Below, in pieces: positions 1 to 15,644 of a DNA stretch of 17,090 nt. The notes beneath the pieces are model-generated. The model saw only the letters and a program-made list of their open reading frames with translations. It had not been told where the DNA came from and did not search any database. This DNA comes from Candidatus Methylomirabilis sp. Its GTDB lineage: Bacteria > Methylomirabilota > Methylomirabilia > Methylomirabilales > Methylomirabilaceae. The stretch spans positions 1 to 17,090 of the forward strand of contig JBGQJI010000041.1 in assembly GCA_041498975.1 (NCBI GenBank), written 5' to 3'. The position numbers and the translations under genes were made by a program. Every line of letters begins with the position of its first letter. Positions within the stretch are counted from its first letter, which is position 1.

Positions 1-5
1 CCTCT

Positions 6-2600
6 GTGGCCTTGGTCGTCCTGGTGTCCTCAGCCGCGTCGCCGGCGGGGCCGACGGCCTCGGTGAGCACCATCTCGAGCAAAACCGGCGGTGCCGCCGG
101 GAGCCTGGAGGTTGGCTTCGTTCCCCAGGAATCCTGGTTGGCGCCGAATGAGGGGGGGAACGACGACTCCTCGCTCCTGGTGAGGGTCAATCCGACCACC
201 TTCGTCGTCCCTTCCGCTGCGGCCCCCACGACAGGACGTGATGCCGAGCTCGAGGACCCGGGAAGCGGGCTGGTCCACTGCTTCGGACAGGGAACCGGCA
301 GCCCAGGCTGCAAGTTCATCCACCTGGGCTCGCTCAACGATGAACGGCGGCCGCTGCGCGTCAACGACTCTACAGTCGTCATCCAGGGGAATGGGCGAGA
401 TTTGGAGGACTGCGAGGTCCACGGGAAGCCGGATCCCGGCCTTGGCTTCCCCGTTGACATCGATACGAAACCCACCTGCTCCTCAGGGTCGCCCACCTGC
501 AACGCGTCCGGCAGCGTCGTCTGCCCCTCAGGGGGGCCCACCTGTGCCGCCGGGTCTGCCCGGTGCGTAGGGAACACACCCATCTGCGAAGCAAGTGAAT
601 CTGGCCGCCAGGCGGAAGCCGCCGACGATGTCCTGTTCGTGGTAAAGGGCCTCGGATCTGACGGGGCGTTCGTGCATAAGGTCACAGTCAAGAGACTTAG
701 CAAGCTGTGCCTGTTCGCCCATTCCACCGATCCGATACGCGTCAACGATGATACCGTGGTGTTCGTTCAGCCGGGCCCCGACCGGCGGTTCGGGATCAGC
801 AGCGGGACCCGAGGGACATCCGGCAACGCTCTTCACTGCGGCGCCGCGCTTGACGACGAGATCTGGGTCGTTTCGAACTTAACTACCAGTACCAAAGACA
901 AAGACGACATCGAGGTGAAGAAGATCAAGGTGGGGCAGAAGCTTGGAGTCCACCTCGGCGGGAGCGCCGCCGACAGGGGGGTGAGACTCAGCGATCGCCT
1001 CGTGGTGTGGGCCTCCCCCGGGGCGGATGGGCACTTTGCCTCCCACACACAATGCACCAGCGAAGCGACACCTTGCGGCCTGCCGAGCCCGAATGCGGCC
1101 GACGACGGGCTGATCGTCCTCGATGTCAAGAGTAATAAGCTCAAGTTCGTGACGATCGGGACTATCCCCGGCAACTCGGCCGGCCGGCCCCTGCGGGTCA
1201 ACGACACTGCAGTGGTCCTCATCGGCACCGGCACCGATCAGGAGCGGCAGGAGGATGTGAAATTCATTCGGTGTACCCAGAACCAGCCCGCCGACGATCA
1301 GATCATCGTGGTGGAAGGCTTGGACACCGCGGTGCCCACGGTCACCACGCTTTCCGGATACGGGTTTATGCGACGGCCGGTCCGGCTGAGCCACGAGGCC
1401 GCCGTCGTCTTCGAGGAGAACTATTTTAACGCCACCAATCAGGGGGGAGTCACCCTCAATGCCCATGTGATCAGGGGGATCGGCGGCTCGGACTCCGATT
1501 TTCCCGGGGAAACTTCGTGCGTCCATATCAGCGGTCCCCCATCGGATACAAGCCTTCCGGTCGGGACCGGGCACCAGTTTGCGGAGACCGACCTGACCCG
1601 GCAGGATGCGGGCGTGGTCTTGAACTGCGACCAGCTCGTCTTCTGGACGGGGCCGGGCGGCACCGACCAGCAGGCCTTCCTCCTGACCAACCACGCGAGC
1701 CCCCCCGCCATCGTCGCGTCGAACACGGCCGCGGGGAACGACTGGGCGGGCCCGAGAACCACCCGGATCAACGACAGCACGATCCTCTACACCGCGAATG
1801 TGCTACAAGCAAACGTGGCGACGAGGGCATTAGGCGTCCTCAAGGCCGCGAGCGATGGGACGACGTTGACGGATACCAGGCTGACGCTGCCGGCCGCCGC
1901 CCAGCCTCCCACCTCGGGAGGCGAGCAGCCGGAGGGGCTGCATATCCCCTCGAGCGCGCCGGTGCGCTTGAGCGACAGCAAGGGCGTCGTCTTGAGCCCC
2001 GGCGCGGACGGCATCTTCAGCGCCCAGTGCAGCTCAGCCTCACAAGATGACGGGTTGATCGTGATCACGGGCCTGGACACGAACTCCCCGAGCACATCGT
2101 TCGTCGGAAGTTGGGGTTCATGCGGGGCCCACGGCTGCAGGCCGATCGCCCTGGGGACGCCCGGCAGCGAGGTCGCCGTCATGGCCGGGCCTGGGGCGAA
2201 CTGCGACATCGGCGAGGTGATAACGAACGCGCCCACCTGCCCGAGTGGGGGAGGGACGCCGTCCTGCTCCACGGGGACGCTCGCCTGTGTCAGGGGGTCG
2301 GCTGCATGCATCACCGGATCGCCCACCTGCACCAGCGGGGTTGCCTTCTGTAATCAAAACGCTAGCGTTCGGTGCAGCGACGCCAGCTCGCCCTCCTGCG
2401 CCGTGGGGTCTTCTGCTCAGTGCTCGGGGGGTCTGGGTACGCCGCCCGTGTGCAAGAAAAGCGTCACCTGCAGCTCCGGGTCCCCTTCGTGCCCCAGCGA
2501 TACGGATACGGTCGTGTGCACGGGTGGTTCACCTACCCCGTCGTTGACATGCTCTGCGGGGAAGGATGATGATGAGTTGATCGTCGTCAAGGGTTTCTAG
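6..2600 (+). CDS. Large secreted Cys-rich repeat protein, family A copy 1 (predicted ~10-repeat beta-propeller with Cys/Gly/Ser/Thr-rich inserts); probably 5'-partial
   Basis: 864-codon ORF, open from the window edge. It starts inside a hydrophobic signal-like stretch (VALVVLVSSAASPA) with no basic N-region, so the true start is probably upstream. Ten repeats of (P)xR[VL][NS]Dx.VV...DDxLxV. Collinear paralogue of 5176..7245. Confidence 0.85.
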   Translation: MALVVLVSSAASPAGPTASVSTISSKTGGAAGSLEVGFVPQESWLAPNEGGNDDSSLLVRVNPTTFVVPSAAAPTTGRDAELEDPGSGLVHCFGQGTGSPGCKFIHLGSLNDERRPLRVNDSTVVIQGNGRDLEDCEVHGKPDPGLGFPVDIDTKPTCSSGSPTCNASGSVVCPSGGPTCAAGSARCVGNTPICEASESGRQAEAADDVLFVVKGLGSDGAFVHKVTVKRLSKLCLFAHSTDPIRVNDDTVVFVQPGPDRRFGISSGTRGTSGNALHCGAALDDEIWVVSNLTTSTKDKDDIEVKKIKVGQKLGVHLGGSAADRGVRLSDRLVVWASPGADGHFASHTQCTSEATPCGLPSPNAADDGLIVLDVKSNKLKFVTIGTIPGNSAGRPLRVNDTAVVLIGTGTDQERQEDVKFIRCTQNQPADDQIIVVEGLDTAVPTVTTLSGYGFMRRPVRLSHEAAVVFEENYFNATNQGGVTLNAHVIRGIGGSDSDFPGETSCVHISGPPSDTSLPVGTGHQFAETDLTRQDAGVVLNCDQLVFWTGPGGTDQQAFLLTNHASPPAIVASNTAAGNDWAGPRTTRINDSTILYTANVLQANVATRALGVLKAASDGTTLTDTRLTLPAAAQPPTSGGEQPEGLHIPSSAPVRLSDSKGVVLSPGADGIFSAQCSSASQDDGLIVITGLDTNSPSTSFVGSWGSCGAHGCRPIALGTPGSEVAVMAGPGANCDIGEVITNAPTCPSGGGTPSCSTGTLACVRGSAACITGSPTCTSGVAFCNQNASVRCSDASSPSCAVGSSAQCSGGLGTPPVCKKSVTCSSGSPSCPSDTDTVVCTGGSPTPSLTCSAGKDDDELIVVKGF

Positions 2601-2624: not shown

Positions 2625-2694
2625 CCCCCTCCCTTACGGGAGGGGGCGTGGGGGAGGGTGACGGAGCGCACCGGCGATCGTCACCCCCCGCCCA
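2625..2694. repeat. REP-like palindromic element (two GC-rich hairpins)
   Basis: CCCCCTCCC-TTAC-GGGAGGGGG (2625-2646, perfect 9-bp stem), then GGGTGACG (2656-2663) / CGTCACCC (2679-2686). Similar CCCTCCC/GGGAG(A)GGG units occur at 15698-15770 and 15906-15936. Confidence 0.55.
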
Positions 2695-2795
2695 GCCTCG
2701 CGGGGTGCCTGGCTCTAAGCAGTGGGGGGCCTGGTCCTACACTCGTGGGATCAGGCCCTTGCTGTTTCACTAGAGGAAGCACACTGAAAGTGGTC

Positions 2796-3536
2796 ATGAG
2801 CAGCTTCTTCGTGGTCTTGCTCTTCGGGATTGCTGCCGCGCTGGGGGATATCGTCGGCGGCCTGGTGCTCACCGCCAACAAGCGGTGGGGGGAAGGTGCG
2901 TTCCTCCGCTACTTCATCGCCCTGAGCGTCGGCTTCATGCTGGCCCTCGCGCTGCTCGAGATGATCCCGGAAAGCATGCGCCTGACGCCGCTGACCCCGT
3001 CTCTCGTCCTTCTGGCCTATCTGCTGGTCCACTTCTTCGAGCACACGATGCCGTCGCACTTCCACTTCGGCGAGGAGATCCATCCCGAGGCGATGGTGAA
3101 GGCGTCGGTGGGCTACCTGGCATTCCTCGGCCTGGCCGTGCACAGCTTTTTCGACGGCATCTCCATCGCCGCGGGCTTCTCGGTCTCCCACAGCCTCGGG
3201 GTCCTTGTCTTCTCCGGCGTGCTCCTGCACAAGCTCCCCGAGGGCTTCACCATCGCCTCCATCATGGTGGCGGCCGGCCATGGGCGGGCGCGGGCCTTGG
3301 GCTCGGCCGTCGCCATCGGCCTGGCGACCATGGTTGGCGTCCTTTTCCTTTCTCTCGCCTCCGGGCTCGCCCCCTACGGCCTCGCGCTGTCCGCGGGGGC
3401 GCTCCTCTACGTGGCCGCCTCGGATCTCATGCCGGAGGTGAATAAGGAGGTGGCGCCCAGGATGGCCTTCGTCGTCTTCGCCGGCGTCCTGCTCTTCTAC
3501 CTCGCCGAGCGACTGCTCGGCCAGATCGGGTCGTGA
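2796..3536 (+). CDS. ZIP (ZupT/GufA-like) family divalent metal transporter
   Basis: Multiple TM helices, His-rich loop HFFEHTMPSHFHFGEEIH, TM4 HSFFDG and TM5 HKLPEG metal-binding motifs, C-terminal LYVAASDLMPE. The ATG at 2796 is preferred because the 2658 start translates a palindromic repeat. Confidence 0.92.
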   Translation: MSSFFVVLLFGIAAALGDIVGGLVLTANKRWGEGAFLRYFIALSVGFMLALALLEMIPESMRLTPLTPSLVLLAYLLVHFFEHTMPSHFHFGEEIHPEAMVKASVGYLAFLGLAVHSFFDGISIAAGFSVSHSLGVLVFSGVLLHKLPEGFTIASIMVAAGHGRARALGSAVAIGLATMVGVLFLSLASGLAPYGLALSAGALLYVAASDLMPEVNKEVAPRMAFVVFAGVLLFYLAERLLGQIGS

Positions 3537-3575
3537 GGGGGCGCAGTTCAGCCAGTCGAAAGGAGGAGATGGTCG

Positions 3576-4127
3576 ATGTTCACCAGAATGTCGGTCGTTC
3601 GGGCTTCCGGGGTCTTCCTTGTGGTCGCGCTCGCTGCTGGGCTTCTTGCTTCGACGCCCGAGAGCTTCGCCCAACCGCCCTCTCGTGGGCAAGACCGTCC
3701 GGTTCAGCGAACACTTCCCCGCAAAGAGATCTATGCCAACCTGAGCAAGGAGCTTGGCGTGAAGGATGCGGAGGCAAAGGCGCTTGTGGAGTCGTTAGAG
3801 GATAAAGGCTTTCCTCCGCGAGAGACGGTCGTGTTGCTCCTGCTTGCCAAAGCCAGAGCGGATCGCTTGATCGAGGAAGGAAGGTACCCAAAGGGGCAGG
3901 GATTGGACGCGCTGAATGCGAGTGTGGACTTTCTCGTCGGCCTTGTCGAAAAGGATAAGGCAGGGTGGTTGGCGCTTGTGGAGAACACTGGAGCGAAGAT
4001 TGACCTGACTACAGTCGTTGCAAAGGCCAATCAGATCATCGGCTTCCACTCTGAGCGAGCCGGTGTCTCCCGCACTGTCCCGGTCGTGGAGCGGGGGGTG
4101 GCGTCGAAGGGGCAATCGAGCCAGTAG
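3576..4127 (+). CDS. Secreted helical protein, family B copy 1 (one ~110-aa domain), function unknown
   Basis: SD AAGGAGG at 3560-3566; signal peptide ending ESFA-Q; domain with PRETVVLLLLA...AGW...KANQIIG shared with 4197..5159 and 7448..8167. Confidence 0.85.
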   Translation: MFTRMSVVRASGVFLVVALAAGLLASTPESFAQPPSRGQDRPVQRTLPRKEIYANLSKELGVKDAEAKALVESLEDKGFPPRETVVLLLLAKARADRLIEEGRYPKGQGLDALNASVDFLVGLVEKDKAGWLALVENTGAKIDLTTVVAKANQIIGFHSERAGVSRTVPVVERGVASKGQSSQ

Positions 4128-4196
4128 CCGGCACAAAGGGGACGTCGCCATCAGCCCTTGGGATGGCGGGCGTGAGAGACCCTGGTGGAGGGAGAG

Positions 4197-5159
4197 GTGA
4201 GCACAACGGAGATTCGGCGTCGCGCGGCAGCCCGGCAACGGGCGATAGGCGGACAGGTCTTCTCGATGATCGCGGTGGGGATGCTTGTGGTCGCGACCCT
4301 GGCTTTGGCGGAGGAGGGAGCCGCGCCGGGCGCCTCCCAGCCGGAAGTGACGCCAGACGAGACCGTCTTCTATGCTCGGGTCGCCTCGTTCCTTGGGCTG
4401 CCCCCGAAGGTCGTTCAGGCAGTGGTGCCGGAGTTCAAACGGGAGGGCGTGAACGAGAGGGATTCGGTCCTTCTTCTCCTCTTCGCGTACAAGCGGACGT
4501 TGCGGCTGCTCCGCGAGGAAAAGATCACAAAGGAGCAGGTGGACAAGGGTTTCAGCGACAGTATCCGCTACTTCCTCGAGACCCGCAGGGCGCGGCCGGG
4601 GCCAGCGGGCTGGAAGGGCTACATCAGCACCGAGATGGCCCTGGAGCTGCACGATGTGGTCAAGCAGGCCGCGAACACCGTCAGAGAAGCCCGGAAGCCT
4701 GCGGACGCGGACAGGCCCGAGCGGGCCGTCAGCGCCGCCGCTCCAAGGGAGGTCCCAGAAGAATTTGCCCAAGCGCTCCAGACGCGCTTCCGGCTGCGTC
4801 CCGAGGTCCTCAAGATGGCGTGGGGACAGCTTGAATCGATGCACCAGCGCGACCCGAGGGGCGCCATAAAGCTCCTCATCCTTGCCAGGGAGAAGACCGA
4901 TCGGCTCCTTGAGTTCGGGGCCATCAAGAGGGACCAGAGGGACAAGGTGTTCCTGGACAACCTGGCAGACTTCATCTCGCAGGTCGAGTCGAACCCGGTC
5001 ATATGGTGGGGAGGCCTGGCGAGCCAGGTCGGTCTCCACTCGAGGGACCTGAACGATGAAACGCTGATCATCTTCAATGCTGCTACCGAGGTCCAGTTGC
5101 GAAAAGGCGTCAGGCGCGCGGAGCGGCCGGCCGTCCCGCGCGAGCTGATCGAGTGGTAG
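4197..5159 (+). CDS. Secreted helical protein, family B copy 2 (two tandem domains), function unknown
   Basis: GGAGG at 4187-4191 ahead of GTG 4197 (alternative GTG 4185); signal peptide ending TLALA-EE; internal duplication ERDSVLLLLFAYKRTLRLL...AGW versus PRGAIKLLILAREKTDRLL...WWG. Confidence 0.85.
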   Translation: MSTTEIRRRAAARQRAIGGQVFSMIAVGMLVVATLALAEEGAAPGASQPEVTPDETVFYARVASFLGLPPKVVQAVVPEFKREGVNERDSVLLLLFAYKRTLRLLREEKITKEQVDKGFSDSIRYFLETRRARPGPAGWKGYISTEMALELHDVVKQAANTVREARKPADADRPERAVSAAAPREVPEEFAQALQTRFRLRPEVLKMAWGQLESMHQRDPRGAIKLLILAREKTDRLLEFGAIKRDQRDKVFLDNLADFISQVESNPVIWWGGLASQVGLHSRDLNDETLIIFNAATEVQLRKGVRRAERPAVPRELIEW

Positions 5160-5175
5160 CGATGGAGGGTGTATC

Positions 5176-7245
5176 TTGAAAAGACGTGTGCTTCTTGTGG
5201 CCTGGTTGCTCGTCGTAGGGTCATCGCCCGCTCTCGCAGCGGTCGTGTCGGTGGACAGCCTTGTCAGGCGAACCGCCAATGCCACTTCGAGGTTGGAGAT
5301 CGGATTCGTCCCCCAGACGACCTGGCTGGAAGAGCTTGAGGGAGGCAACGAAGACTCCGCGCTCCTGGTGCGGGTTAGCCCGACTACGTTCGTGGTCTCC
5401 TCCCCGGGTCTGGGAAAGGAATTTCGGGACCGGGCGAACGGTCTGGTTCACTGCTATGGGCCGGCGGCCGGGACCTGCGAGTTCATTCCGCTTGGACCTC
5501 TCGCGGAGGACAGGAGGGCACTGCGCGTCAACGACTCGACGGTCGTGATCCAGGGGCTCGGGCCCGATAATGAGGGGTGCGAGGGTCCCGGGATGGCCGA
5601 TGATGTGCTCTACATCATCAGAGGTCTCGGGGCCCCCGGGGCGACCGTAGAAACCGATCCGGCCCTCTCCAATCTCTGCTTGTTCTTGCAAGGCACCGAT
5701 CCGATACGGGTGGATGACGACACCGTGGTGTTCTCCCAGCCGCGGTCCGCTTCAAACTCGCGGACGACCGGCCGCTCTCGCGGCAGCACGCAGAGCGCCG
5801 ACCCCTGCCGCGCCGCGTCTGAGGACGGGATTGTCGTGATACGCGGTCTCAGGCCTCGGGCGGCGCTTAAGGTCACTCCGATGAACGTGGGCTCACTGTT
5901 TGGCGTCCACCTGAGCGGAGGCCCGGCAGGCCGGGCGGTAAGGCTCAGCGACACCACGGTCGTGTGGGCCTCCCCCGGGGCGGATGGGCATTTCGCCTTC
6001 ATTCCCATCGGCGGAGATGTGCCCGAGGATGCCGATCGGCTCTGTGGCGCCACGAAGCGGAACAGCGCCGACGACGGCCTCTTGGTCCTGAAACTGGTGA
6101 AGGGAGGGCAGCCCGTCCTGCAGTGGGTGCCGATCGGTATTATCACGGCCAATCCGGCTGGCCGGCCTTTGAGAGTGAACGATTCGGCGGTGGTCCTCGT
6201 CGGCGTGGCCGAGGATCGGGTAGAGCAGGAAGCGGTGACGGTTCAAAGTCCCTTTACCGGGCTGCCGGTCACGAGTCAGCTCATCGTCGTTGAAGGCCTT
6301 GGCGAGCCCCACACGACGGTCACGTCCTTTCCCGGGTTCGGGGGTGTGCGACGTCCGGTGCGGCTGAGCCAGGGGACCGTGGCCTTCTTCGAAGAGGAGG
6401 CTTCGGGCGCGAGATCCAAAGAAGATGTCCTGATCACGGCGAATCTGGTTCGTGGGATCGCCGGCAGCGACAGCGGCTCCGACAGTGACGGGGCCTGCCC
6501 TGTCGGGAAAGGGCCGCTCTCCATCGTGAGCATTCCCATTGCCACGGGCCATGGCTTCGTGCAGACCGACAAGACCCGAGAGGATGTCGGCGTGGTCTTG
6601 AACTGTGCCCAAGTCGTCTTCTGGGTAAATGGCCCACGCGTCACTGACCAGCAGGCGTTCCTCCTGACCGATGCGGGGACCAAGGTTCCCAGGCTGGCGC
6701 CGTCATCAACCCCAGCGGGGGCCATGTGGGACCGTCCGAGGGCCGGGCGAGTCAACAAGCACACCGCTGCGTACAGCGTGGCACACGCCAATACGCCGCT
6801 CGGCCTCCTGAAGGCGTCGAGCTCGGGCGATTTGACCGACTTGAGGCTTCAGGTCCCGCCTGATGCCGTCCCCAGCCCTCCTTGCGGTGATCCCCAGGAC
6901 GGGGAGTCCCTGCATCAGCCTTCCAGCCAGCCGGTACGCCTGAGCGACAGCATGGTCGTGATCCTGAGTAAGGGAAAGGACGGGGGCTTCAGCAAGCTCC
7001 CCCAGCCCCCCAACTGCCCCGGCGCCGTCGATGATGGGTTGATCGTGATCGAGGGGGCGGACAATGGCGTCCCTACCACGAGGTACGTCGGGTTCTGGAA
7101 CTCGTGCGGAGGGCCAGGCTGCAAGCCGCTTGCCCTGGGGACTCCGGGCAAAGAGATCGTCGTCGTGGGAGGGTTTGGCCAAGCTTACAGGATCGGCGAC
7201 CAAATGGAGCACGATCACGAGCTGGTCATCGTCACGTTGCCCTGA
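5176..7245 (+). CDS. Secreted repeat protein, family A copy 2 (predicted ~10-repeat beta-propeller), function unknown
   Basis: TTG start with GGAGG at 5164-5168; signal peptide MKRRVLLVAWLLVVGSSPALA; same ten repeats as copy 1; 29 identical nt at 5962-5990 and 1005-1033. Confidence 0.88.
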   Translation: MKRRVLLVAWLLVVGSSPALAAVVSVDSLVRRTANATSRLEIGFVPQTTWLEELEGGNEDSALLVRVSPTTFVVSSPGLGKEFRDRANGLVHCYGPAAGTCEFIPLGPLAEDRRALRVNDSTVVIQGLGPDNEGCEGPGMADDVLYIIRGLGAPGATVETDPALSNLCLFLQGTDPIRVDDDTVVFSQPRSASNSRTTGRSRGSTQSADPCRAASEDGIVVIRGLRPRAALKVTPMNVGSLFGVHLSGGPAGRAVRLSDTTVVWASPGADGHFAFIPIGGDVPEDADRLCGATKRNSADDGLLVLKLVKGGQPVLQWVPIGIITANPAGRPLRVNDSAVVLVGVAEDRVEQEAVTVQSPFTGLPVTSQLIVVEGLGEPHTTVTSFPGFGGVRRPVRLSQGTVAFFEEEASGARSKEDVLITANLVRGIAGSDSGSDSDGACPVGKGPLSIVSIPIATGHGFVQTDKTREDVGVVLNCAQVVFWVNGPRVTDQQAFLLTDAGTKVPRLAPSSTPAGAMWDRPRAGRVNKHTAAYSVAHANTPLGLLKASSSGDLTDLRLQVPPDAVPSPPCGDPQDGESLHQPSSQPVRLSDSMVVILSKGKDGGFSKLPQPPNCPGAVDDGLIVIEGADNGVPTTRYVGFWNSCGGPGCKPLALGTPGKEIVVVGGFGQAYRIGDQMEHDHELVIVTLP

Positions 7246-7447
7246 AAGGGGCGGCAGCGATGACATGGCAATGTCCGCGCCGCAGGGTGATTCCGCTGTT
7301 ATGGCATTGTGCAATCCCGGACACGCTGGCTATCCTGCGGGTGGAAACGGGCGAACACGATGTGGGGCTGAGGGGGGATTTGATCGAGGCACACGTCGCC
7401 GTGGCCGGATTCCCCACAGGAGCTTCATAGGCAAGGAGGCAAGAGAC

Positions 7448-8167
7448 ATGCGTGGCAGGCGACTCTATGGCGGTTTCTTCATGCAATGTCTGCTCGTCGG
7501 ACTGGCCTGCTTGGCGGTCCCTGAGCTCTCGTTCGCCACGGCGCAGAGTCTTCAGGAGCGCGCGTTCGAGGAGTGGAAATCCGACCTCCAGGGTCCGGCC
7601 GAAGTCGGATCCAACGTGGGCCTGGGGTGGCTCGTCCCTGAGGCATGTGAGGCGACCGGCCTCTACTCCAGGGAGACTGCAGACTCCAGGACCGCCCAGG
7701 CCGTAGGGCGGCCCGAGGCGGCGGAAGAGAAGGGGCAGGGGCCGCCGCAAGGGGGGCCGGCGGCGCAGGAAGAGGGCAAGCCGGCGCGCCCTAAGAAGAT
7801 CAGGCATCCTGACGCCACCCCCGAGAAGCGCTTCCCCCGTGAGGTGATCCTCAAGAATCTCACCAAGCAGTTCGCCATCGACGAGGAGACGATCAAGGCC
7901 CGCCTGACCAAGATCGAGGAGGAGATGCCCACGCGCGAGGCGGTCATGCTGTTCGTCCTGGCGAACGACATGACGAGGAAGCAGATCCTGCTGGGCGAAA
8001 TCGAGCCGCCGCAAAGGAAGGCGGCTTTCGAAAAGAACCTGCAAACGGTTCTGGAGCTCAGCGAGAACGGGGCCGGATGGGGGGACATCGGCAGGCTGGC
8101 CGGCATGGAGCTGAGCGGCCGCGACCTCACGATGAGGGCGAATAAGCTCATCGGTCAGTCTGAATGA
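7448..8167 (+). CDS. Secreted helical protein, family B copy 3 (low-complexity linker plus one domain), function unknown
   Basis: AAGGAGG at 7433-7439 before ATG 7448; signal peptide ending ELSFA-T; domain TREAVMLFVLA...GAGWGDI...RANKLIG homologous to copies 1 and 2. Confidence 0.85.
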   Translation: MRGRRLYGGFFMQCLLVGLACLAVPELSFATAQSLQERAFEEWKSDLQGPAEVGSNVGLGWLVPEACEATGLYSRETADSRTAQAVGRPEAAEEKGQGPPQGGPAAQEEGKPARPKKIRHPDATPEKRFPREVILKNLTKQFAIDEETIKARLTKIEEEMPTREAVMLFVLANDMTRKQILLGEIEPPQRKAAFEKNLQTVLELSENGAGWGDIGRLAGMELSGRDLTMRANKLIGQSE

Positions 8168-8377
8168 GCGCACTCTCGCGGTCGCCCGGCCGAGGAGGCC
8201 GCTGTCTCCGTACTGCGCCAGAGTCTCCAGATGCTCTCTGAGGATCAGTTCTACGGCAGGGGCGACCACGAGTGCTGCCCCCGGTCCCGCGCCCCGACCT
8301 TCGTGGCTGGATGGATTTCCCAGGCGTCCCCCCGCAAGTCTCCAACATCCCGGAGATGCACGAAATCGTGCAGGGGC

Positions 8378-8758
8378 CAGCCTCAGGCCATCGCCAGCGC
8401 TCCCTGCGCCGGTGGCCGGGAGGTAGGGGGGATGTATGCACCGGCCGGCCAGCCAGTGCGCCTCAGCAACAGCAGGATCGCCGTCGTGAGCAAGGGGAAG
8501 GACGGCGGGTTTAGCAAAAGGCCTGAGCCCCCTCGCCGCCCCGGCGCCGATGATGGGCTGATTATTGTCGAAGGGGCAGACACTGGCACCCCGACCACGA
8601 GGTACGTCGGGTTCTGGAATTCGTGTGGGGGTCCGGGTTGCAGGCCGCTTGCTCTGGGGAACCCTGGCCACGAGATCATTGCCGTTGGGGGCAGTGGCCG
8701 GAACCTTGAGATCCAAGAGGGCGAGGACGATGAGTTGATCATCGTCACATTGCCATAA
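8378..8758 (+). pseudogene. Orphan C-terminal fragment (last ~2 repeats) of a third family A gene
   Basis: QPVRLSNSRIAVVSKGKDGGFSK...PTTRYVGFWNSCGGPGCRPLALG...DDELIIVTLP closely matches the C-terminus of 5176..7245 (26 identical nt at 8594-8619 and 7075-7100). No signal peptide or upstream repeats. A possible independent start is ATG 8432 with GGAGGT at 8419-8424. Confidence 0.75.
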
Positions 8759-8785
8759 GAGCGGGGCAGCGAGTGCTGGCATTCG

Positions 8786-8941
8786 TTGAGCAAGTACGGC
8801 ATTGCGGACGCGGGTGCCGCCTTCTTCACACTCTTTGCGACGCCTCCGCCCGGCCTCGAAGAGCGGGCCGCCGCGCTGCTCCAAGGGTATGAACTCCTCT
8901 TCTGGGACACCTTGGCCCAGGCATCCACGCTCGGCACGTAG
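8786..8941 (+). pseudogene. Remnant resembling the C-terminus of a TenA/THI-4-like protein
   Basis: Frame reads LSKYGIADAGAAFFTLFATPPPGLEERAAALLQGYELLFWDTLAQASTLGT*. FFxLFATPPPG and LLQGYELxFWDTL recall TenA-family C-termini (from memory), apparently with the intervening helix missing. Confidence 0.5.
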
Positions 8942-9045: not shown

Positions 9046-9465
9046 ATGCTGGTTAAACGCTACATGCGGACCAAGCTTGTCACCGTCGGGCCGGAGGAGG
9101 GGGCCAATGCCGCACTCTACTTGATGAAGAAGAGCACCGTTCGCCACCTGCTTGTGGTGGACGGCAAGAAGCTGCTGGGGATCGTCACCGATAGGGATTT
9201 CCGGCTTGTGCGCCCCTCTCCTGCCACGAGTCTGTCCATCTTTGAGATCAATTACCTCCTCGAAAAGCTGAAGGTGAAAGAGATTATGACCAAGAAGGTG
9301 ATCACCGTGACGCCGGAGACCCCAATCGCGGAGGCTGCGCAGCTCCTGCTCAATCGGCGAATCGGGGCGCTTCCGGTCTTGAAGGAGGGGGAGGTGGTCG
9401 GCATCATCAGCGAAACGGATTTGTTGCGCGCGCTGATCGACACGGAGGAAGCACGGGGGACTTGA
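9046..9465 (+). CDS. Tandem CBS-domain protein (AcuB N-terminal-like)
   Basis: SD AAAGGAG upstream; two CBS motifs VRHLLVVDGKKLLGIVTDRD and IGALPVLKEGEVVGIISETDLL; linker PSPATSLSIFEINYLL typical of AcuB-like proteins; no ACT domain. Confidence 0.92.
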   Translation: MLVKRYMRTKLVTVGPEEGANAALYLMKKSTVRHLLVVDGKKLLGIVTDRDFRLVRPSPATSLSIFEINYLLEKLKVKEIMTKKVITVTPETPIAEAAQLLLNRRIGALPVLKEGEVVGIISETDLLRALIDTEEARGT

Positions 9466-9572
9466 ATCGGGCGACGATGGTCGAGCTTGGATCACCTTGC
9501 GAGGCGCTTCGGCTGCCGGTATACTTCCTTCAGAAAGGCGCTTGATCTCTTTCGGCCCGTGGGAGTGAAGTC

Positions 9573-10628
9573 ATGCCGGACGTCATGACGCTCGGCGACA
9601 TCCTGACCCGCCTGACCAGAGAGGGGGAGCTGTACGAAACGCTCCCCGACCAGCGGGTTCGCTGCTATTCGTGCGGCCACCGCTGCCTGATCCCGGAGGG
9701 CCGACCGGGGGTGTGCAAGGTCCGATTCAACAGGGGCGGCGTCCTGTATGTCCCTGCCGGCTATGTCGGCGCTCTGCAGTGCGATCCTATCGAGAAGAAG
9801 CCGTTCTTCCATGCCCTCCCCGGATCTCTCGCCCTCAGTTTCGGCATGCTCGGATGTGATTATAAATGCGGGTTCTGCCAGAATTGGCTCACCTCGCAGG
9901 CGCTGCGCGATCCCCAGGCGCAAAGCCCTCCCCAGATGGTGTCGGCAGAGTATCTCGTCGCGGCGGCTGAACACTACGGCGCGCCGATCGTCGCCAGCAC
10001 GTACAACGAGCCGCTGATCACCAGTGAGTGGGCCGTCGAGATCTTCCGTGTGGCAAAGCGGCATGGTCTGAAGACCGCTTATATCAGCAACGGCAACGGC
10101 ACCCCTCAGGTAATCGAATACCTGAAGCCGTGGGTAGACTTGTACAAGGTCGATCTCAAAGGGTTCAACGATGCCAACTACCGGAAGTTGGGCGGGGTGC
10201 TGGAGCACGTCCTGGAGACGATCAAACTGCTGGTGGAGAAGCGATTCTGGGTGGAGATCGTCACGCTGGTTGTCCCGGGCTTCAACGACTCGGAAGCAGA
10301 GCTGACCCAGATCGCCGAGTTCCTGACCTCGATTTCCCCGGATCTCCCCTGGCATGTCACGGCGTTTCACCAGGATTACAAGATGCAGGACCGCGCCAAC
10401 ACCACGGCCAGCGCACTGCTTCGGGCCGCCGAGATTGGGAAGGGGGCCGGCCTTCGCTACGTCTATGCCGGCAACCTCCCGGGACGCGTCGGCCCCTACG
10501 AGAACACCTGCTGCCCATCCTGCCAGACCCTGCTCATTGAGCGGTACGGCTACACCATCCTCAAAAACGTCCTGAAGGACGGCGCCTGCCCGACCTGCCG
10601 CACCCGGATCCCGGGGGTCTGGAACTAA
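9573..10628 (+). CDS. amrS: AmmeMemoRadiSam system radical SAM enzyme (PFL-activase-like)
   Basis: N-terminal CYSCGHRC...GVCKVR; DPIEKKPFFH; radical SAM CxxxCxxC (CDYKCGFC-QNW); TYNEP; C-terminal CPSC...CPTC...IPGVW. Confidence 0.9.
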   Translation: MPDVMTLGDILTRLTREGELYETLPDQRVRCYSCGHRCLIPEGRPGVCKVRFNRGGVLYVPAGYVGALQCDPIEKKPFFHALPGSLALSFGMLGCDYKCGFCQNWLTSQALRDPQAQSPPQMVSAEYLVAAAEHYGAPIVASTYNEPLITSEWAVEIFRVAKRHGLKTAYISNGNGTPQVIEYLKPWVDLYKVDLKGFNDANYRKLGGVLEHVLETIKLLVEKRFWVEIVTLVVPGFNDSEAELTQIAEFLTSISPDLPWHVTAFHQDYKMQDRANTTASALLRAAEIGKGAGLRYVYAGNLPGRVGPYENTCCPSCQTLLIERYGYTILKNVLKDGACPTCRTRIPGVWN

Positions 10629-10712
10629 CCCGCCGGCCTCCTCCCCTCTTCCCCTTTGTGGTAACTCCCTGCCGATCTTATTGTCCTCTCGGCTGATCAT
10701 GACTCTTGTTCC

Positions 10713-12271: not shown

Positions 12272-12919
12272 ATGGCAGATGACAAGGGGAGTGATCGGCC
12301 GACCATCACCTGTTCTCCGAACGGACCGTATCTCGTTGAGCGGCTCGAGCGCTTTAAGAATTCCAAGGGCGAGACCCTGCCCACGAAGGCAACCATCGCC
12401 CTGTGCCGGTGCGGCGCGTCCTCCAAGAAGCCGTTCTGTGACGGGACTCACGCGAAAATCGGCTTCTCCAGCGAGCGCCAGAGCGACAAGGACATTCACC
12501 GACGGAAGGATTATGTGGGCAAGACCATCACCATCCACGATAATCGGACGATCTGTTCCCACGCCGGCTATTGCACCGACCGGTTGAAGTCAGTGTTTCG
12601 CCTGCGCGCGGAGCCATGGATCGATCCCGATGGAGCGGATGTACGCGCGATCATCGAGACCATCAGGCAGTGTCCTTCCGGGGCGCTGAGTTACTCGATG
12701 GGCGGTGTGGAGCACCGCGATCAGGATCGCGAGTCGATGATCGCCGTCTCCAAGGATGGCCCGTATCACGTCAATGGCGGCATCGAGATAAAGGGTGTGT
12801 CGGGCTTGCAGCCGCCCTCGCGGGAGCACTATGCCTTGTGCCGGTGCGGGGCGTCGAAGAACAAACCATTCTGCGACGGCTCACACTGGTCTGCCAAGTT
12901 CCACGACGAGACGAACTGA
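12272..12919 (+). CDS. CDGSH iron-sulfur protein: CDGSH + divergent ferredoxin (Fer4_19-like) + CDGSH
   Basis: CRCGASSKKPFCDGTH and CRCGASKNKPFCDGSH flank CSHAGYC...PWIDPD...CPSGAL. Confidence 0.92.
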   Translation: MADDKGSDRPTITCSPNGPYLVERLERFKNSKGETLPTKATIALCRCGASSKKPFCDGTHAKIGFSSERQSDKDIHRRKDYVGKTITIHDNRTICSHAGYCTDRLKSVFRLRAEPWIDPDGADVRAIIETIRQCPSGALSYSMGGVEHRDQDRESMIAVSKDGPYHVNGGIEIKGVSGLQPPSREHYALCRCGASKNKPFCDGSHWSAKFHDETN

Positions 12920-12935
12920 CACAACGGGTGTGCCC

Positions 12936-12962
12936 TTGGGAGGCAAGACCCTTGCCTTCCAA
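12936..12962 (+). other. Intercistronic 12-bp hairpin (no U-tract)
   Basis: TTGGGAGGCAAG-ACC-CTTGCCTTCCAA with one G:U pair; may stabilise mRNA or act as a weak attenuator. Confidence 0.45.
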
Positions 12963-13016
12963 CGGCAGCTGGCGGCGGAGGCAGCAACCGATCGAGGTTC
13001 CGTGTAGAGGGACAGA

Positions 13017-13715
13017 ATGATCAGGATCCGACCAGGCAATGAGCGTGGCCATGCGAATCATGGCTGGCTGGATACGTACCACACATTCTCCTTTGCCGAC
13101 TATTACGATCCCAAACACATGGGGTTTCGTCACCTGCGGGTGATCAATGAAGATCGCGTCAAGCCCGGTGCGGGTTTCCCCACGCATTCGCATCGAGATA
13201 TGGAAATCCTCACTTATGTCCTCGAGGGCGCCCTGGCGCACAAGGATAGCATGGGCAATGGATCGGTGATCCGCCCTGGCGACGTGCAACGGATGAGCGC
13301 CGGCACCGGCATCAGCCACAGCGAATATAACCATTCGCAGAGCGAGCCCGTGCACTTGTTGCAGATTTGGATCGTGCCGGAGCAGACGGGCCTGAGCCCC
13401 AGTTATGAACAGCGATCCTTTGAGATCGGAGGCGGGCCTGGGACATGGCGACTGATTGCTGCGAGGGGCGGCCGTGATGGAGCGGTGACGGTTCATCAGG
13501 ATGTCGAGGTCCTTGCCGCCAGGCTGGCCCCAGGAGACCGGGTCGTGTATCAACTGAAGCCCGGTCGGCACGCCTGGCTGCAGGCGGCGCGTGGCTCGCT
13601 GATGCTTGGCGGCATCCCGCTCCAGGCAGGGGATGGGGCCGGGGTCAGCGACGAAGCAGTCGTCGAGATCACCGCAAACGACGCGGCGGAAGTGCTGCTA
13701 TTCGATCTCAGTTAA
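13017..13715 (+). CDS. Pirin family bicupin (YhhW / quercetin 2,3-dioxygenase-like)
   Basis: RGHANHGWLDTYHTFSFADYYDP, GFPTHSHRDMEILTYV, HKDSMGN, MSAGTGISHSEYN, LLQIWI. Confidence 0.95.
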   Translation: MIRIRPGNERGHANHGWLDTYHTFSFADYYDPKHMGFRHLRVINEDRVKPGAGFPTHSHRDMEILTYVLEGALAHKDSMGNGSVIRPGDVQRMSAGTGISHSEYNHSQSEPVHLLQIWIVPEQTGLSPSYEQRSFEIGGGPGTWRLIAARGGRDGAVTVHQDVEVLAARLAPGDRVVYQLKPGRHAWLQAARGSLMLGGIPLQAGDGAGVSDEAVVEITANDAAEVLLFDLS

Positions 13716-13987
13716 CCCCGATCCGAACATATCCAGTGGGGTGGGTAGCGTGGCCAGCGGGTCCTGTCGCAGTGATCAGCCCCCGTCGTCCTCGCTCCAC
13801 CCATCCCCCAGTGGGGCCCTTCCGCGGCGGGCGCCGGGGGCGCCCGCTCACCGCGCCACCCGCTGGCTAGCCAGACATCGCAGGCCCATTAATTTCGGAT
13901 TGGGGTTAACGTGCCTCTTAGTGCGAAGCGTAAGGCGATGGGGCACAATCCGTAATAACCACGCCATAACAAAAGGAGGAACACACA

Positions 13988-14473
13988 ATGAAGCCGAACA
14001 TCGGGCTCGCAGACAAGGATCGCGCATCGGTTGTCAAGATCCTCAATGCCCTGCTCTCGGATGAATACGTGCTGTATACGAAGACGAGAAACTACCACTG
14101 GAACGTCGTCGGACCCCAGTTCAACGACCTGCACAAGTTCTTCGAGGCGCAGTATACCGAGCTGAATGAGGTAGTGGATGAAGTTGCCGAGCGGGCGCGC
14201 ACTCTCGGCGGAAGATCCATGGGGACTTTGGCGGAATTCTCCCGTCATACGAGGCTCAAGGAGCAGGCCGGCCAGGACCCGAAGGCCCGCAACATGATTG
14301 CAAACCTTCTCAGCGACCATGAGGAGATCATCCGTCAGTTGCGAAAAGACCTCGAATCGTGTGCTGAAAAGCACCGTGATCTGGGTACGAGCGACTTCCT
14401 GACCGGGCTGATGGAACGACATGAAAAAATGGCATGGATGCTCCGCGCGTTTCTGGAAGGCGAGTCGGTCTAG
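13988..14473 (+). CDS. dps: Dps DNA-protection / ferritin-like protein
   Basis: Strong SD AAAGGAGG; NYHWNVVGPQFNDLHKFFE...VDEVAER ferroxidase signature; C-terminal HEKMAWML. Confidence 0.95.
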   Translation: MKPNIGLADKDRASVVKILNALLSDEYVLYTKTRNYHWNVVGPQFNDLHKFFEAQYTELNEVVDEVAERARTLGGRSMGTLAEFSRHTRLKEQAGQDPKARNMIANLLSDHEEIIRQLRKDLESCAEKHRDLGTSDFLTGLMERHEKMAWMLRAFLEGESV

Positions 14474-14632: not shown

Positions 14633-15562
14633 ATGGATGACGCGATTCACTTCCTGCTTCGGCACGGGTACATCGTGCTGTTCGTCTGGGTGCTGGCGGA
14701 GCAGATCGGTCTGCCGCTACCCGCTGTCCCGTTTCTGTTTGCTGCCGGGGCGCTGGGCGGCAGCGGCCGATTGAATCTGGGTCTCGCGATCGGGGTTGCG
14801 GTCCTTGCGTCGCTGCTCAGCGACGTCACCTGGTATGAGATCGGGCGGCGCCGCGGCCGCCGCGTCTTGCACCTGCTCTGCCGGATCTCGCTGGAGCCCG
14901 ATTCGTGTGTCAGGAGAACAGAGGAGGTGTTTGCCCGGCACGGCGCTCGCTCGCTCCTGGTGGCGAAGTTCATCCCGGGTCTGAGTACCGCGGCGCCACC
15001 GCTGGCGGGAATATTCCGCATGCGCCTGCACCGCTTCCTGCTGTTCGATAGCCTCGGGGCACTCATCTGGGCGGGTGCATTCGCCGGAATAGGCTACCTG
15101 TTCAGCGGTCAGCTCGAGCAACTTGCAGCATACGCCCTCCTGATGGGCGCGTCGCTGGCGGGGATCCTGGCAGGATGCCTCGCGGTGTACATCCTCTGGA
15201 AATATGCCCAGCGTCATCGCTTTCTGCGTCAGTTGCGCATAGCACGCATCACCCCGGAGGAGCTGAAGCGAAGACTCGACGAGGGCGAAGATGTCATGAT
15301 CGTCGACCTGCGTCACTCGCTGGACTTCGAGGGCGAGCCTTACACCATCCCCGGTGCATTGCGGCTGCCTCCAGAGGAGGTGGAGCGGCGCCACCACGAA
15401 ATCCCCCGCGACCGCGATGTCGTCCTCTACTGCACGTGACCCAACGAAGCCACCAGCGCCAGGGTGGCGCTGCTGCTCAGGCGGCGGGGGATCAGCCGGG
15501 TCCGGCCGCTTGCCGGAGGTCTCGACGGCTGGCGCCACAACGGCTTCGCGGTGAGCTCTTGA
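14633..15562 (+). CDS. DedA (VTT/SNARE-associated) - rhodanese fusion, predicted selenoprotein (in-frame TGA 15437-15439 = Sec269)
   Basis: DedA motifs (EQIGLPLP, WYEIGRRRG, LLVAKFIPGL) then rhodanese IVDLR...IPGAL...VVLYCT-TGA-PNEATSARVALLLRRRGISRVRPLAGGLDGWRHNGFAVSS*, with the real stop at 15560-15562. Homologues as I recall them read YCxCPNE. A hairpin follows the TGA. Confidence 0.88.
15446..15478 (+). promoter_or_regulatory. Candidate bacterial SECIS element
   Basis: Perfect 8-bp stem CAGCGCCA (15454-15461) / TGGCGCTG (15465-15472) with a GGG apical loop starting 22 nt after the UGA; weak lower stem GAAGC/GCTC. Confidence 0.75.
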
Positions 15563-15644
15563 GGCCGGTCGCCCACGTCGGCTACCAGCCAGAGCAACTC
15601 CAGCTCGAATGATCCATGAGCGCGAGCTAGCACCCCCACCGGCA

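Follow-up and report, generated by a model that had tools for sequence, protein, structure and literature searches.

A putative inner-membrane DedA-rhodanese selenoprotein with an in-frame UGA and a conserved SECIS-like hairpin

In the 17,090-nt stretch of DNA from Candidatus Methylomirabilis sp. analysed here (the window), a gene for a DedA-rhodanese fusion is interrupted by an in-frame TGA within the active-site loop of its rhodanese domain, which raises the question of whether this codon ends the protein or encodes selenocysteine. DedA proteins are nearly universal, and their rhodanese fusions are without an assigned function.

Translation of the window showed that the frame opening with the ATG at 14633 reaches TGA 15437-15439 directly after VVLYCT and then stays open through a further 40 codons (PNEATSARVALLLRRRGISRVRPLAGGLDGWRHNGFAVSS) until a second TGA, 15560-15562. 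The start agrees with the N-terminus MDxxIxFL of homologues, while the standard table-11 ORF call for the gene ends at 15439. The read-through product has 309 residues with U at position 269, and the 40 codons past the first TGA complete the rhodanese domain and contain LAGGLDGW, confirming the continuation described in the original prediction. The features of the gene are as follows, all on the forward strand.

14633..15562, + strand: predicted full selenoprotein gene, 309 codons plus stop, with UGA-269 read as Sec
14717..15100, + strand: DedA/VTT membrane domain (aa 29-156), Pfam PF09335, 72.4 bits against a cut-off of 33.9
14879..14908, + strand: conserved Cys pair C83...C92, LCRISLEPDSCVRR, in a loop of the DedA domain, invariant in alignments
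15149..15232, + strand: last long helix (aa 173-200), putative membrane anchor followed by the basic linker WKYAQRHRFLRQLR, from DSSP on the model
15251..15535, + strand: rhodanese domain (aa 207-301), Pfam PF00581, spanning the UGA
15431..15433, + strand: TGC, Cys267, the canonical rhodanese active-site Cys by phmmer alignment with 3tp9, 5ve3 and 6pfz
15437..15439, + strand: in-frame UGA, predicted to be read as Sec269 from the TGA/Cys pairing among relatives
15454..15472, + strand: SECIS-like hairpin, stem 15454-15461 with 15465-15472, loop GGG, from folding and family comparison
15560..15562, + strand: true stop codon, TGA, from translation of the frame

The DedA domain region is entirely helical in the AlphaFold2 model. 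C83 and C92 are invariant in two alignments (A1, 33 sequences; A3, 79 sequences) and in three proteobacterial fusions at 37-41% identity, and both are absent from E. coli YghB, whose equivalent region is 3 residues shorter. By the positive-inside rule, the rhodanese domain probably lies on the cytoplasmic side. Its Pfam match (48.3 bits, cut-off 22.2) extends over positions 1-100 of the 102-position profile, and both sequence- and fold-based PDB matches to this part of the protein are rhodanese domains only, with the top Foldseek matches at an rmsd of 1.5-2.5. Cys267 is invariant in the homologue alignments, the three distant proteobacterial fusions included. The predicted Sec269 is two residues C-terminal to C267, giving a Cys-x-Sec centre (YC-T-U-PNE) in an active-site loop that exceeds those of the aligned solved rhodaneses by two residues. 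The CxU centre proposed in the original prediction is thus present, with the canonical rhodanese position occupied by C267 and the Sec following two residues later.

The codon at column 269 was tabulated among the closest genomic relatives, as the original prediction had suggested. TGA was found in 76 and TGY in 4 (TGT in 3, TGC in 1) of 80 loci, which are the best 80 of at least 585 confirmed matches, each from a different species-level genome, and were ranked by likeness to a Sec-form-based query, such that 76/80 is not an unbiased frequency. All of the relatives used are metagenome-assembled genomes. The 76 TGA loci span at least 10 phyla (Acidobacteriota 42, Methylomirabilota 6, Nitrospirota 4, Rokuibacteriota 2, Myxococcota 2, Dormiibacterota 2, Binatota 2, Bacillota 1, Nitrospinota 1, Thermodesulfobacteriota 1, unassigned 13). 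At the protein level, 78 of the 120 best database matches are full-length homologues, and every one of them has Cys at this column (CxCPNE in 77 and CxCPSE in 1), in agreement with the YCxCPNE motif that the original prediction gave for such fusions; the other 42 stop precisely at ...LYC[T/A/S]. In this 5.8-billion-cluster protein set, each TGA-type entry among the matches seen ends at residue 268, and the family is therefore wrongly annotated in Acidobacteriota, Methylomirabilota, Nitrospirota and other phyla. A tree of 159 sequences implies no fewer than 10 switches between Sec and Cys, of which 4 or more fall on well-supported branches, and places the window gene nearest to relatives from Methylomirabilota. 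Frequent switching between Sec and Cys is typical of selenoprotein families.

The arms of the hairpin, CAGCGCCA (15454-15461) and TGGCGCTG (15465-15472), form 8 bp around a GGG loop (15462-15464). The 8-bp stem and GGG loop of the original prediction are real, but the distance given there, 22 nt from the UGA to the stem, is that to the loop; the stem begins 14 nt past the UGA. In the model of the bacterial SECIS (bSECIS) given in a review, the loop has 3-9 nt with a G in its first two positions, the stem has 4-16 bp, the spacing is 16-37 nt and the MFE is <=-7.5 kcal/mol. With its GGG loop, 8 bp, 22 nt and -13.8 kcal/mol, the window hairpin lies within these limits, consistent with the bacterial SECIS constraints that had been invoked for it. 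The 25-nt fold has z = -1.97, with 8 of 200 shuffles folding equally well, and the 64-nt context past the UGA prefers a different pairing and folds no better than shuffles (z = -0.37). Single-sequence folding was set aside as evidence. By itself the hairpin is only mildly unusual for DNA of 60-65% G+C, and its significance comes from comparison with relatives.

Across 77 Sec-form genes, the lowest synonymous observed/expected ratio of the whole gene (0.297) falls at codons 274-279, on the hairpin, and the 8 lowest of 304 six-codon intervals all start within codons 271-278, the median interval being at 1.03. The family hairpin is described by CGKGU, with 6-7 bp, at 21 nt from the UGA, and its stem core pairs AGCGCC (15455-15460) with GGCGCU (15466-15471) family-wide. 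A 7-bp helix is paired in 94.0% of cells, compared with 21-68% when the partner is slid, and is matched by 0 of 500 shuffles. A hairpin of <=-7.5 kcal/mol is present in 71 of the 77 genes (median -12.5, against -3.9 for 23,095 control windows from the same genes), and in 63 of the 77 it ranks within the best 5% of the gene's own windows. The closing pair covaries (CG 29, GC 15, UA 3, GU 2, AU 1, unpaired 26). RNAalifold called only 4 pairs, all invariant, with a covariation term of -0.02, and the wider stem pairing was scored by hand; covariation is thin because the core stem is almost invariant. The peptide S-A-R-V-A-L by itself imposes part of the stem complementarity. The hairpin is also kept in two of the four close Cys-form genes (L020, -9.8; L065, -10.1) and is therefore not exclusive to TGA genes. 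Only 7 Cys-form DNAs were available, too few for a matched synonymous-rate control, and relatives in the plasmid collection, at <=42% identity, are too distant to provide one. A search of the whole window against Rfam gave no family at gathering scores, and for 15380-15600 two chance-level matches were returned (E = 4.9 and 6.5).

Neither selA, selB, selC nor selD was seen within the 17-kb window, which also contains no tRNA gene, and a scan of 60 of the 80 loci gave no tRNA-Sec. A tblastn search with E. coli SelA, SelB and SelD against the window and the 80 loci (1.23 Mb) returned three matches, of which one is a genuine SelD, in an oxidoreductase-SelD fusion (L069:169-2232(-)) beside a Cys-form gene. 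The matches at L029 and L067 were rejected as HypE/ThiL-like and DgaE-like, respectively. Candidates for additional selenoproteins in the window were likewise rejected: a radical-SAM extension (9462-10628) belongs to an ordinary AmmeMemoRadiSam enzyme whose profile match starts after the TGA, and the other ORFs re-listed with TGA=U are candidates with one odd codon and no family match.

If the UGA were a real stop, the gene would yield a DedA protein of 268 residues ending in a defective rhodanese stub, and the sequence downstream would be untranslated or decaying, as in a pseudogene. Such a reading matches the table-11 ORF call and the way in which the 42 TGA-type entries of the 120 best database matches are all annotated, but the coding signal does not end at this codon. 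The frame stays open for 40-67 codons past column 269 in 81 of 81 genes (the 80 loci and the window). dN/dS, which the original prediction had proposed to compare on either side of the TGA, is 0.233 over the 34 codons 270-303, 0.252 over codons 196-268 and 0.249 over codons 1-195, i.e. 0.23 downstream versus 0.25 upstream, and selection is not relaxed. Past the UGA, nucleotide diversity lies mainly at third positions (0.21/0.17/0.52 for codon positions 1/2/3), and this stretch is better conserved than the remaining protein, with a mean pairwise amino-acid identity of 0.72 downstream and 0.61 upstream. The Pfam rhodanese match requires residues up to 301, and one strand and two helices of the AlphaFold2 fold come after residue 269. 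A real stop is extremely unlikely on this evidence.

A conserved downstream frame proves translation, not the identity of the residue inserted, and the UGA might instead be read through by near-cognate insertion of Trp, Cys or Arg, or be reassigned as in NCBI tables 4 or 25; that no Sec machinery was seen in the window or flanks would fit such decoding. Against it, three other Pfam-supported window genes and the DedA-rhodanese gene itself end with an ordinary TGA stop, and none of the 6 other window genes contains an in-frame TGA, so UGA is not reassigned genome-wide and its recoding is site-specific. The column alternates with Cys codons only, at a redox-type CxC site, the conserved hairpin agrees with the bSECIS model at the right distance, and the closest curated family is one with Sec, its U standing at the equivalent place in the motif. 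In addition, a review mentions one Methylomirabilota MAG, from the phylum of the window's nearest relatives, predicted to have 63 selenoprotein genes. Together these points make decoding as another residue very unlikely. For the TGA to be a misassembled or misread TGC or TGT, a single wrong base would suffice, in a window that is probably metagenome-derived, but the same TGA recurs in 76 independently assembled genomes of different species and is also indicated by 42 protein clusters truncated at this point, which leaves this explanation a negligible likelihood.

The decoding of the UGA as Sec, as originally predicted, is supported by the TGA/Cys pairing, the hairpin and the downstream constraint, and the reading of TGA 15437-15439 as selenocysteine is strongly supported by these sequence comparisons. 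With high confidence, we propose that the gene encodes a 309-residue inner-membrane DedA-rhodanese selenoprotein in which UGA-269 is recoded as Sec via the SECIS hairpin. The recoding signature and the domain architecture are the part established computationally. In the proposed mechanism, SelB and Sec-tRNA would recode UGA-269 to selenocysteine, with the short G+C-rich hairpin inside the coding sequence, its loop 21-22 nt past the UGA, serving as the bacterial SECIS. In the protein, an N-terminal helical DedA/VTT domain would be followed by a final membrane helix, a basic linker and, at the C-terminus, the rhodanese domain, which probably faces the cytoplasm. The Cys-x-Sec centre may cycle via a selenenylsulfide, or carry a persulfide or perselenide, and could possibly exchange with the further invariant pair of cysteines in the DedA loop, C83/C92.

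Natural replacement of Cys by Sec usually marks a redox-catalytic residue. Since the Sec occupies the position of the second Cys of the YCxC loop and not that of the canonical Cys, it points to thiol/selenol chemistry over plain sulfur transfer. We infer that the diverged DedA module bears a cytoplasmic centre for thiol/selenol redox chemistry or sulfur transfer. A role in redox or electrophile stress at the membrane is suggested by the neighbouring genes; linkage of any one gene reaches at most 27 of the 81 loci, however, so gene context gives a weak functional hint only.

A more far-reaching hypothesis, which we consider rather unlikely, is that C83/C92 and C267/U269 form a four-residue chalcogen relay coupling the transporter-like DedA module to selenol chemistry, so that the protein would act at the membrane either to import and reduce, or to sense, a sulfur, selenium or electrophile species. 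Selenite or sulfane sulfur are example substrates, and DedA is cited in a review as involved in selenite uptake in Ralstonia metallidurans. Of the four residues defining the UndP-flippase subfamily, the DedA module has lost two. Were such a relay to operate, soil Acidobacteriota and Methylomirabilota would share a widespread selenoenzyme that has escaped annotation, and the relay would provide the first functional handle on DedA-rhodanese fusions.

The original prediction left open whether Sec-containing members of this family had been catalogued. CxU rhodanese selenoproteins are already known, being listed as NF041203, as are Cys-type DedA-rhodanese fusions, whereas a Sec-bearing DedA-rhodanese fusion was found in no paper of the literature searched and appears to be undescribed as a membrane selenoprotein. 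The CxU rhodanese, 'form 3' of the rhodanese selenoproteins, is credited to Zhang & Gladyshev 2005 (bSECISearch), and its function is given as predicted only (PMC13188914, PMC9312934). The best NCBIfam match of the window's rhodanese domain is to this family (NF041203, rhodanese_LYCAU, 'rhodanese-related (seleno)protein'; profile 17-123 of 126), at 86.8 bits, below the equivalog cut-off of 115 bits. The 15 YCxCPNE relatives tested, fused and stand-alone, likewise all score 73-95 bits, below 115. Both share L-Y-C-x-U, a motif taken here from the model name and from the 'CxU' entry of the review, with Sec two residues past the active-site Cys; the window reads LYCTU. The NF041203 model describes a stand-alone protein of ~126 residues, while the window protein, at 309 residues, carries a DedA domain N-terminal to the rhodanese domain, the residues PNE following the Sec, and an extra conserved Cys pair in the DedA part. 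The window family thus scores under the cut-off of the sole curated model able to rescue it. A dedicated model would mend hundreds of gene calls and add a membrane selenoprotein to soil and groundwater phyla outside the classical Sec-rich anaerobes.

E. coli YgaP has an N-terminal rhodanese domain, a small two-helix anchor and a single catalytic Cys, and is not known to contain a DedA domain or Sec. As is predicted for the window protein, its rhodanese domain is anchored at the cytoplasmic face of the inner membrane (PMC3551814, PMC4730233), and the review tables (PMC13188914, PMC9312934) list no selenoprotein form of it. TsoB ('form 5', NF045694, UxxxxU) is also a rhodanese-domain selenoprotein and is named rhodanese/DsbD fusion-like, but by its description it differs from the window protein in partner domain, motif and Sec count (2). 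DsbD is a membrane redox module. Haft & Tolstoy 2025 is reportedly the primary paper on TsoB.

With the COG0586 DedA undecaprenyl-phosphate flippases (E. coli YghB, UptA), the window protein shares the Pfam VTT/DedA domain. Glu39, Asp51, Arg130 and Arg136 of YghB are called conserved and essential (PMC10127716). In a single MAFFT alignment at 31% identity, in which the D51 column is less certain, Glu39 is kept as E23 and Arg130 is conservatively replaced by K112, while Asp51 and Arg136 are lost (V32 and S118), such that the window protein does not carry the YghB/UptA-type residue set. Its scores are also far under the cut-offs of the NCBIfam UptA and DedA equivalogs (51.5 against 250 and 66.3 against 236).

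The Cys-type fusions noted in PMC10127716 and PMC12893004 have the same two domains and the same length as the window protein. They include P. aeruginosa PA1209 (311 aa) and the Xanthomonas and Ralstonia proteins annotated as 'DedA family protein/thiosulfate sulfurtransferase GlpE'. The four Cys positions 83, 92, 267 and 269 are invariant at 37-41% identity. Unlike the window protein, these fusions have Cys at 269 and are annotated at full length.

The reading frame of the DedA-rhodanese fusion gene (14633–15562, + strand) opens with ATG 14633 and meets TGA 15437–15439, codon 269, after ...RDRDVVLYCT. Beyond this TGA, 40 further codons remain in frame (PNEATSARVALLLRRRGISRVRPLAGGLDGWRHNGFAVSS) up to a second TGA at 15560–15562, and the read-through product has 309 residues with two domains:

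aa 29–156: VTT/DedA domain (Pfam, 72.4 bits; cut-off 33.9)
aa 207–301: rhodanese domain, with the TGA inside it (Pfam, 48.3 bits; cut-off 22.2)

In the AlphaFold2 model (mean pLDDT 85.9), the part C-terminal to the UGA residue forms helix 270–284, strand 290–293 and helix 296–302 of the rhodanese fold. The frame, together with the Pfam match across the TGA, confirmed the original prediction that the 40-codon continuation finishes the rhodanese domain.

A protein search gave 7,987 matches from 8,000 scored candidates, and the best 120 were examined. Of these, 42 end exactly at ...LYC[T/A/S] (267–304 aa, mostly 268), the same point at which the table-11 ORF list ends the DedA-rhodanese ORF (15439), as had been anticipated for ordinary gene calling. 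No source held an extended version of these 42 entries, and every TGA-type database entry examined among the best 120 is truncated at this column. The other 78 are full length (313–336 aa), and all 78 carry Cys at the column within the motif [LFV][YF]C-x-C-P-[NS]-E, in agreement with the YCxCPNE motif from which a Cys had been expected there. A genomic scan with one genome per GTDB species matched at least 600 stretches, of which at least 585 were confirmed and the best 80 kept. The column codon in these 80 loci is TGA in 76, TGT in 3 and TGC in 1, a biased frequency, as the query alignment was made from Sec-type (TGA) sequences and similarity to it decided the ranking of the loci. The TGA loci belong to Acidobacteriota (42), Methylomirabilota (6), Nitrospirota (4), Rokuibacteriota, Myxococcota, Dormiibacterota and Binatota (2 each), and Bacillota, Nitrospinota and Thermodesulfobacteriota (1 each), with 13 records lacking a phylum. 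A FastTree phylogeny built from 77 Sec and 82 Cys sequences (159 in total) requires no fewer than 10 switches between Sec and Cys, of which well-supported branches impose 4 or more; the window sequence clusters with MAGs of Methylomirabilota and Rokuibacteriota (80% identity to its relative L001).

The stretch past the UGA is translated. The frame is open for 40–67 codons past the column in 81/81 genes, and dN/dS (Nei-Gojobori, summed over pairs with dS < 1.5) is 0.233 for codons 270–303 (0.242 without the hairpin codons), compared with 0.249 for the DedA part and 0.252 for the rhodanese codons that precede the UGA; the proposed comparison of the two sides of the TGA thus revealed no relaxed selection. 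Nucleotide diversity past the UGA is 0.21/0.17/0.52 at codon positions 1/2/3, and amino-acid identity averaged over pairs rises from 0.58–0.61 upstream of the UGA to 0.72 downstream. Sequencing error is excluded as the source of the TGA, since it recurs in 76 of the 80 loci. Recoding of UGA is specific to this site. Three other genes of the window (ZIP, NAD-dehydrogenase and CDGSH) end in an ordinary TGA stop, as does the fusion gene itself, and no in-frame TGA occurs in the six other domain-supported genes of the window, so that genome-wide reassignment of UGA is unlikely.

UGA-269 is followed by a hairpin, a candidate bacterial SECIS:

15454–15461: 5′ arm, CAGCGCCA
15462–15464: loop, GGG
15465–15472: 3′ arm, TGGCGCTG

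The 8-bp stem and GGG loop were found as predicted; the predicted distance of 22 nt from the UGA is that of the loop, while the stem begins at 14 nt. In DNA of 60–65% G+C, the window hairpin alone is slightly better than chance (25-nt fold −13.8 kcal/mol, z = −1.97, with 8/200 shuffles folding equally well), and in a 64-nt context (z = −0.37) an alternative pairing is preferred. Observed and expected synonymous pair differences were compared in six-codon windows across the 77 Sec-type genes, a within-gene contrast that is fair because shared ancestry acts on every column alike. The gene-wide lowest ratio, 0.297, falls at codons 274–279 (T-S-A-R-V-A), and the lowest 8 of 304 windows all start within codons 271–278 (median window 1.03, 5th percentile 0.84). 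The constrained bases are AGCGCC-CGKGU-GGCGCU. RNA-level constraint is placed exactly where a bacterial SECIS is expected.

The six core pairs are formed in 69–76 of 76 distinct rows, and the seventh, closing pair covaries (CG 29, GC 15, UA 3, GU 2, AU 1, unpaired 26). Overall, 94.0% of hairpin cells are paired, a level reached by 0/500 column shuffles, against 21–68% with the 3′ partner slid by 1–3 columns. RNAalifold gave 4 pairs and a covariation term of −0.02; true covariation is thin because the core stem is nearly invariant, and the complementarity of the arms is partly forced by the peptide S-A-R-V-A-L. The hairpin energy is ≤ −7.5 kcal/mol in 71/77 genes (median −12.5), compared with a median of −3.9 and a 5th percentile of −9.9 in 23,095 control windows from the same genes, and the hairpin is within its own gene's best 5% of windows in 63/77. 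Close Cys-type genes keep it in two of four cases (loci L020, −9.8, and L065, −10.1) and lack it in two (L046, −4.0, and L069, −5.3), and in three distant Cys forms the fold is a different one (−7.7 to −11.7); a matching synonymous-rate control would need more than these seven Cys-type DNAs. The bacterial SECIS model in the Fig. 2 legend of a 2026 review (PMC13188914) has a loop of 3–9 nt, a stem of 4–16 bp, G in the first two loop positions, a UGA-to-loop distance of 16–37 nt and MFE ≤ −7.5 kcal/mol. As worded in that legend, it accommodates both the window hairpin (GGG, 8 bp, 22 nt, −13.8) and the family consensus (CGKGU, 6–7 bp, 21 nt).

The TGA/Cys column, the downstream dN/dS and the SECIS-like constraint all favour the proposed decoding of UGA as Sec, and computational support for the predicted Sec269 is about as strong as it can be. 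A Foldseek search of the PDB returned rhodanese domains only (best 3tp9, rmsd 1.5 over 105 columns), with no match for the DedA part. In phmmer alignments, C267 lies opposite the Cys following the central strand of the solved rhodaneses 3tp9, 5ve3 and 6pfz, which is the catalytic residue of the rhodanese fold. Sec269 sits two residues past C267, in a loop with two residues more than its counterpart in these structures. The DedA domain contains an invariant Cys pair, C83 and C92 (LCRISLEPDSCVRR, window 14879–14908), kept in 33 Sec-type sequences, in 79 sequences of the protein alignment (P0001 and 78 Cys-type homologues) and, with C267 and C/U269, in three proteobacterial fusions of 37–41% identity; it may be a second redox site. 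Basic runs occur before the C83/C92 loop (GRRRGRR) and past the last helix (WKYAQRHRFLRQLR), and the positive-inside rule suggests that this loop and the rhodanese domain are both cytoplasmic. Our best inference is a cytoplasmic Cys-x-Sec centre for redox or sulfur (selenium) transfer, possibly relaying to C83/C92 on a diverged DedA module.

Directly upstream of the fusion gene is a stress-type run on the same strand (12272–14473):

12272–12919, same strand: CDGSH/Fer4_19 iron-sulfur protein
13017–13715, same strand: Pirin
13988–14473, same strand: Dps

An ABC transporter lies downstream. No neighbour gene is universal among the 81 loci. The largest neighbour clusters are common to up to 27/81 loci, mostly Acidobacteriota-labelled MAGs, with MarR, short-chain dehydrogenase, YceI and nitroreductase preceding the Sec fusion on the same strand (for example L062:8539–9962, L045:8569–9162, L012:2554–3126 and L014:7358–8134); loci with this run have a dCTP deaminase downstream on the opposite strand. 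Pirin recurs in five related loci and DoxX in four, and the order in Xanthomonas sacchari (L083) is pirin-LysR-fusion-SDR. These redox or electrophile stress-type neighbours give a weak functional hint. No sel genes were found near the fusion gene in the window and the flanks of the relatives' loci searched. In L069, a Terriglobia MAG locus with the Cys (TGC) form, a pyridine-nucleotide-disulfide oxidoreductase fused to SelD (169–2232, − strand; TIGR03169 479.5 bits, TIGR00476 284 bits) precedes the DedA-rhodanese gene by ~8 kb.

Elsewhere in the window, 9573–10628 (+) encodes a radical SAM enzyme of the AmmeMemoRadiSam system (TIGR04337, 269.2 bits; cut-off 220); a longer antisense ORF (9492–10700) has no match and is probably spurious. 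The ZIP/ZupT-like transporter gene (2658–4127 (+) region) ends at TGA 3534–3536 with the next ORF in the same frame; as the match to the ZIP profile is all but complete by this TGA, these are probably two genes and not a second read-through. The adjoining ORFs 3576–4127 (+), which apparently opens with a signal-like hydrophobic stretch, and 4158–5159 (+) have no family match; by eye they share a repeat, ~(V/L)LLL(L/F)A..(R/K)...RL(I/L)(E/R)E(G/E), in three copies. ORFs 3–2600 (+), 5176–7245 (+), 3795–5348 (−) and 7232–8884 (−), of 517–865 aa, match neither Pfam nor NCBIfam. These long ORFs leave about 9 kb of the window without annotation; in DNA this rich in G+C, some of them may be non-coding shadows of the opposite strand.

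PMC10127716 gives Glu39, Asp51, Arg130 and Arg136 as conserved, essential residues of the UndP-flippase subfamily. In alignment with E. coli YghB, these positions are E23, V32, K112 and S118 in the window protein, which falls far below the cut-offs of the NCBIfam UptA and DedA equivalogs; the C83/C92 pair of the DedA-rhodanese family is absent from YghB. The DedA module has diverged and no longer resembles undecaprenyl-phosphate flippases. The best NCBIfam match of the rhodanese domain is NF041203 (rhodanese_LYCAU, rhodanese-related (seleno)protein), at 86.8 bits below its cut-off of 115, which is also missed by 15/15 YCxCPNE relatives tested, fused or stand-alone (73–95 bits). Full-text literature searches gave no mention of a Sec-bearing DedA-rhodanese, and neither 'DedA' nor 'VTT' occurs in the body text of the 2026 review (PMC13188914), BSepDB or deep-Sep; supplements and databases may already list such a protein under the rhodanese family. 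The fusion is widespread and represents a known kind of selenoprotein in membrane-fused form.
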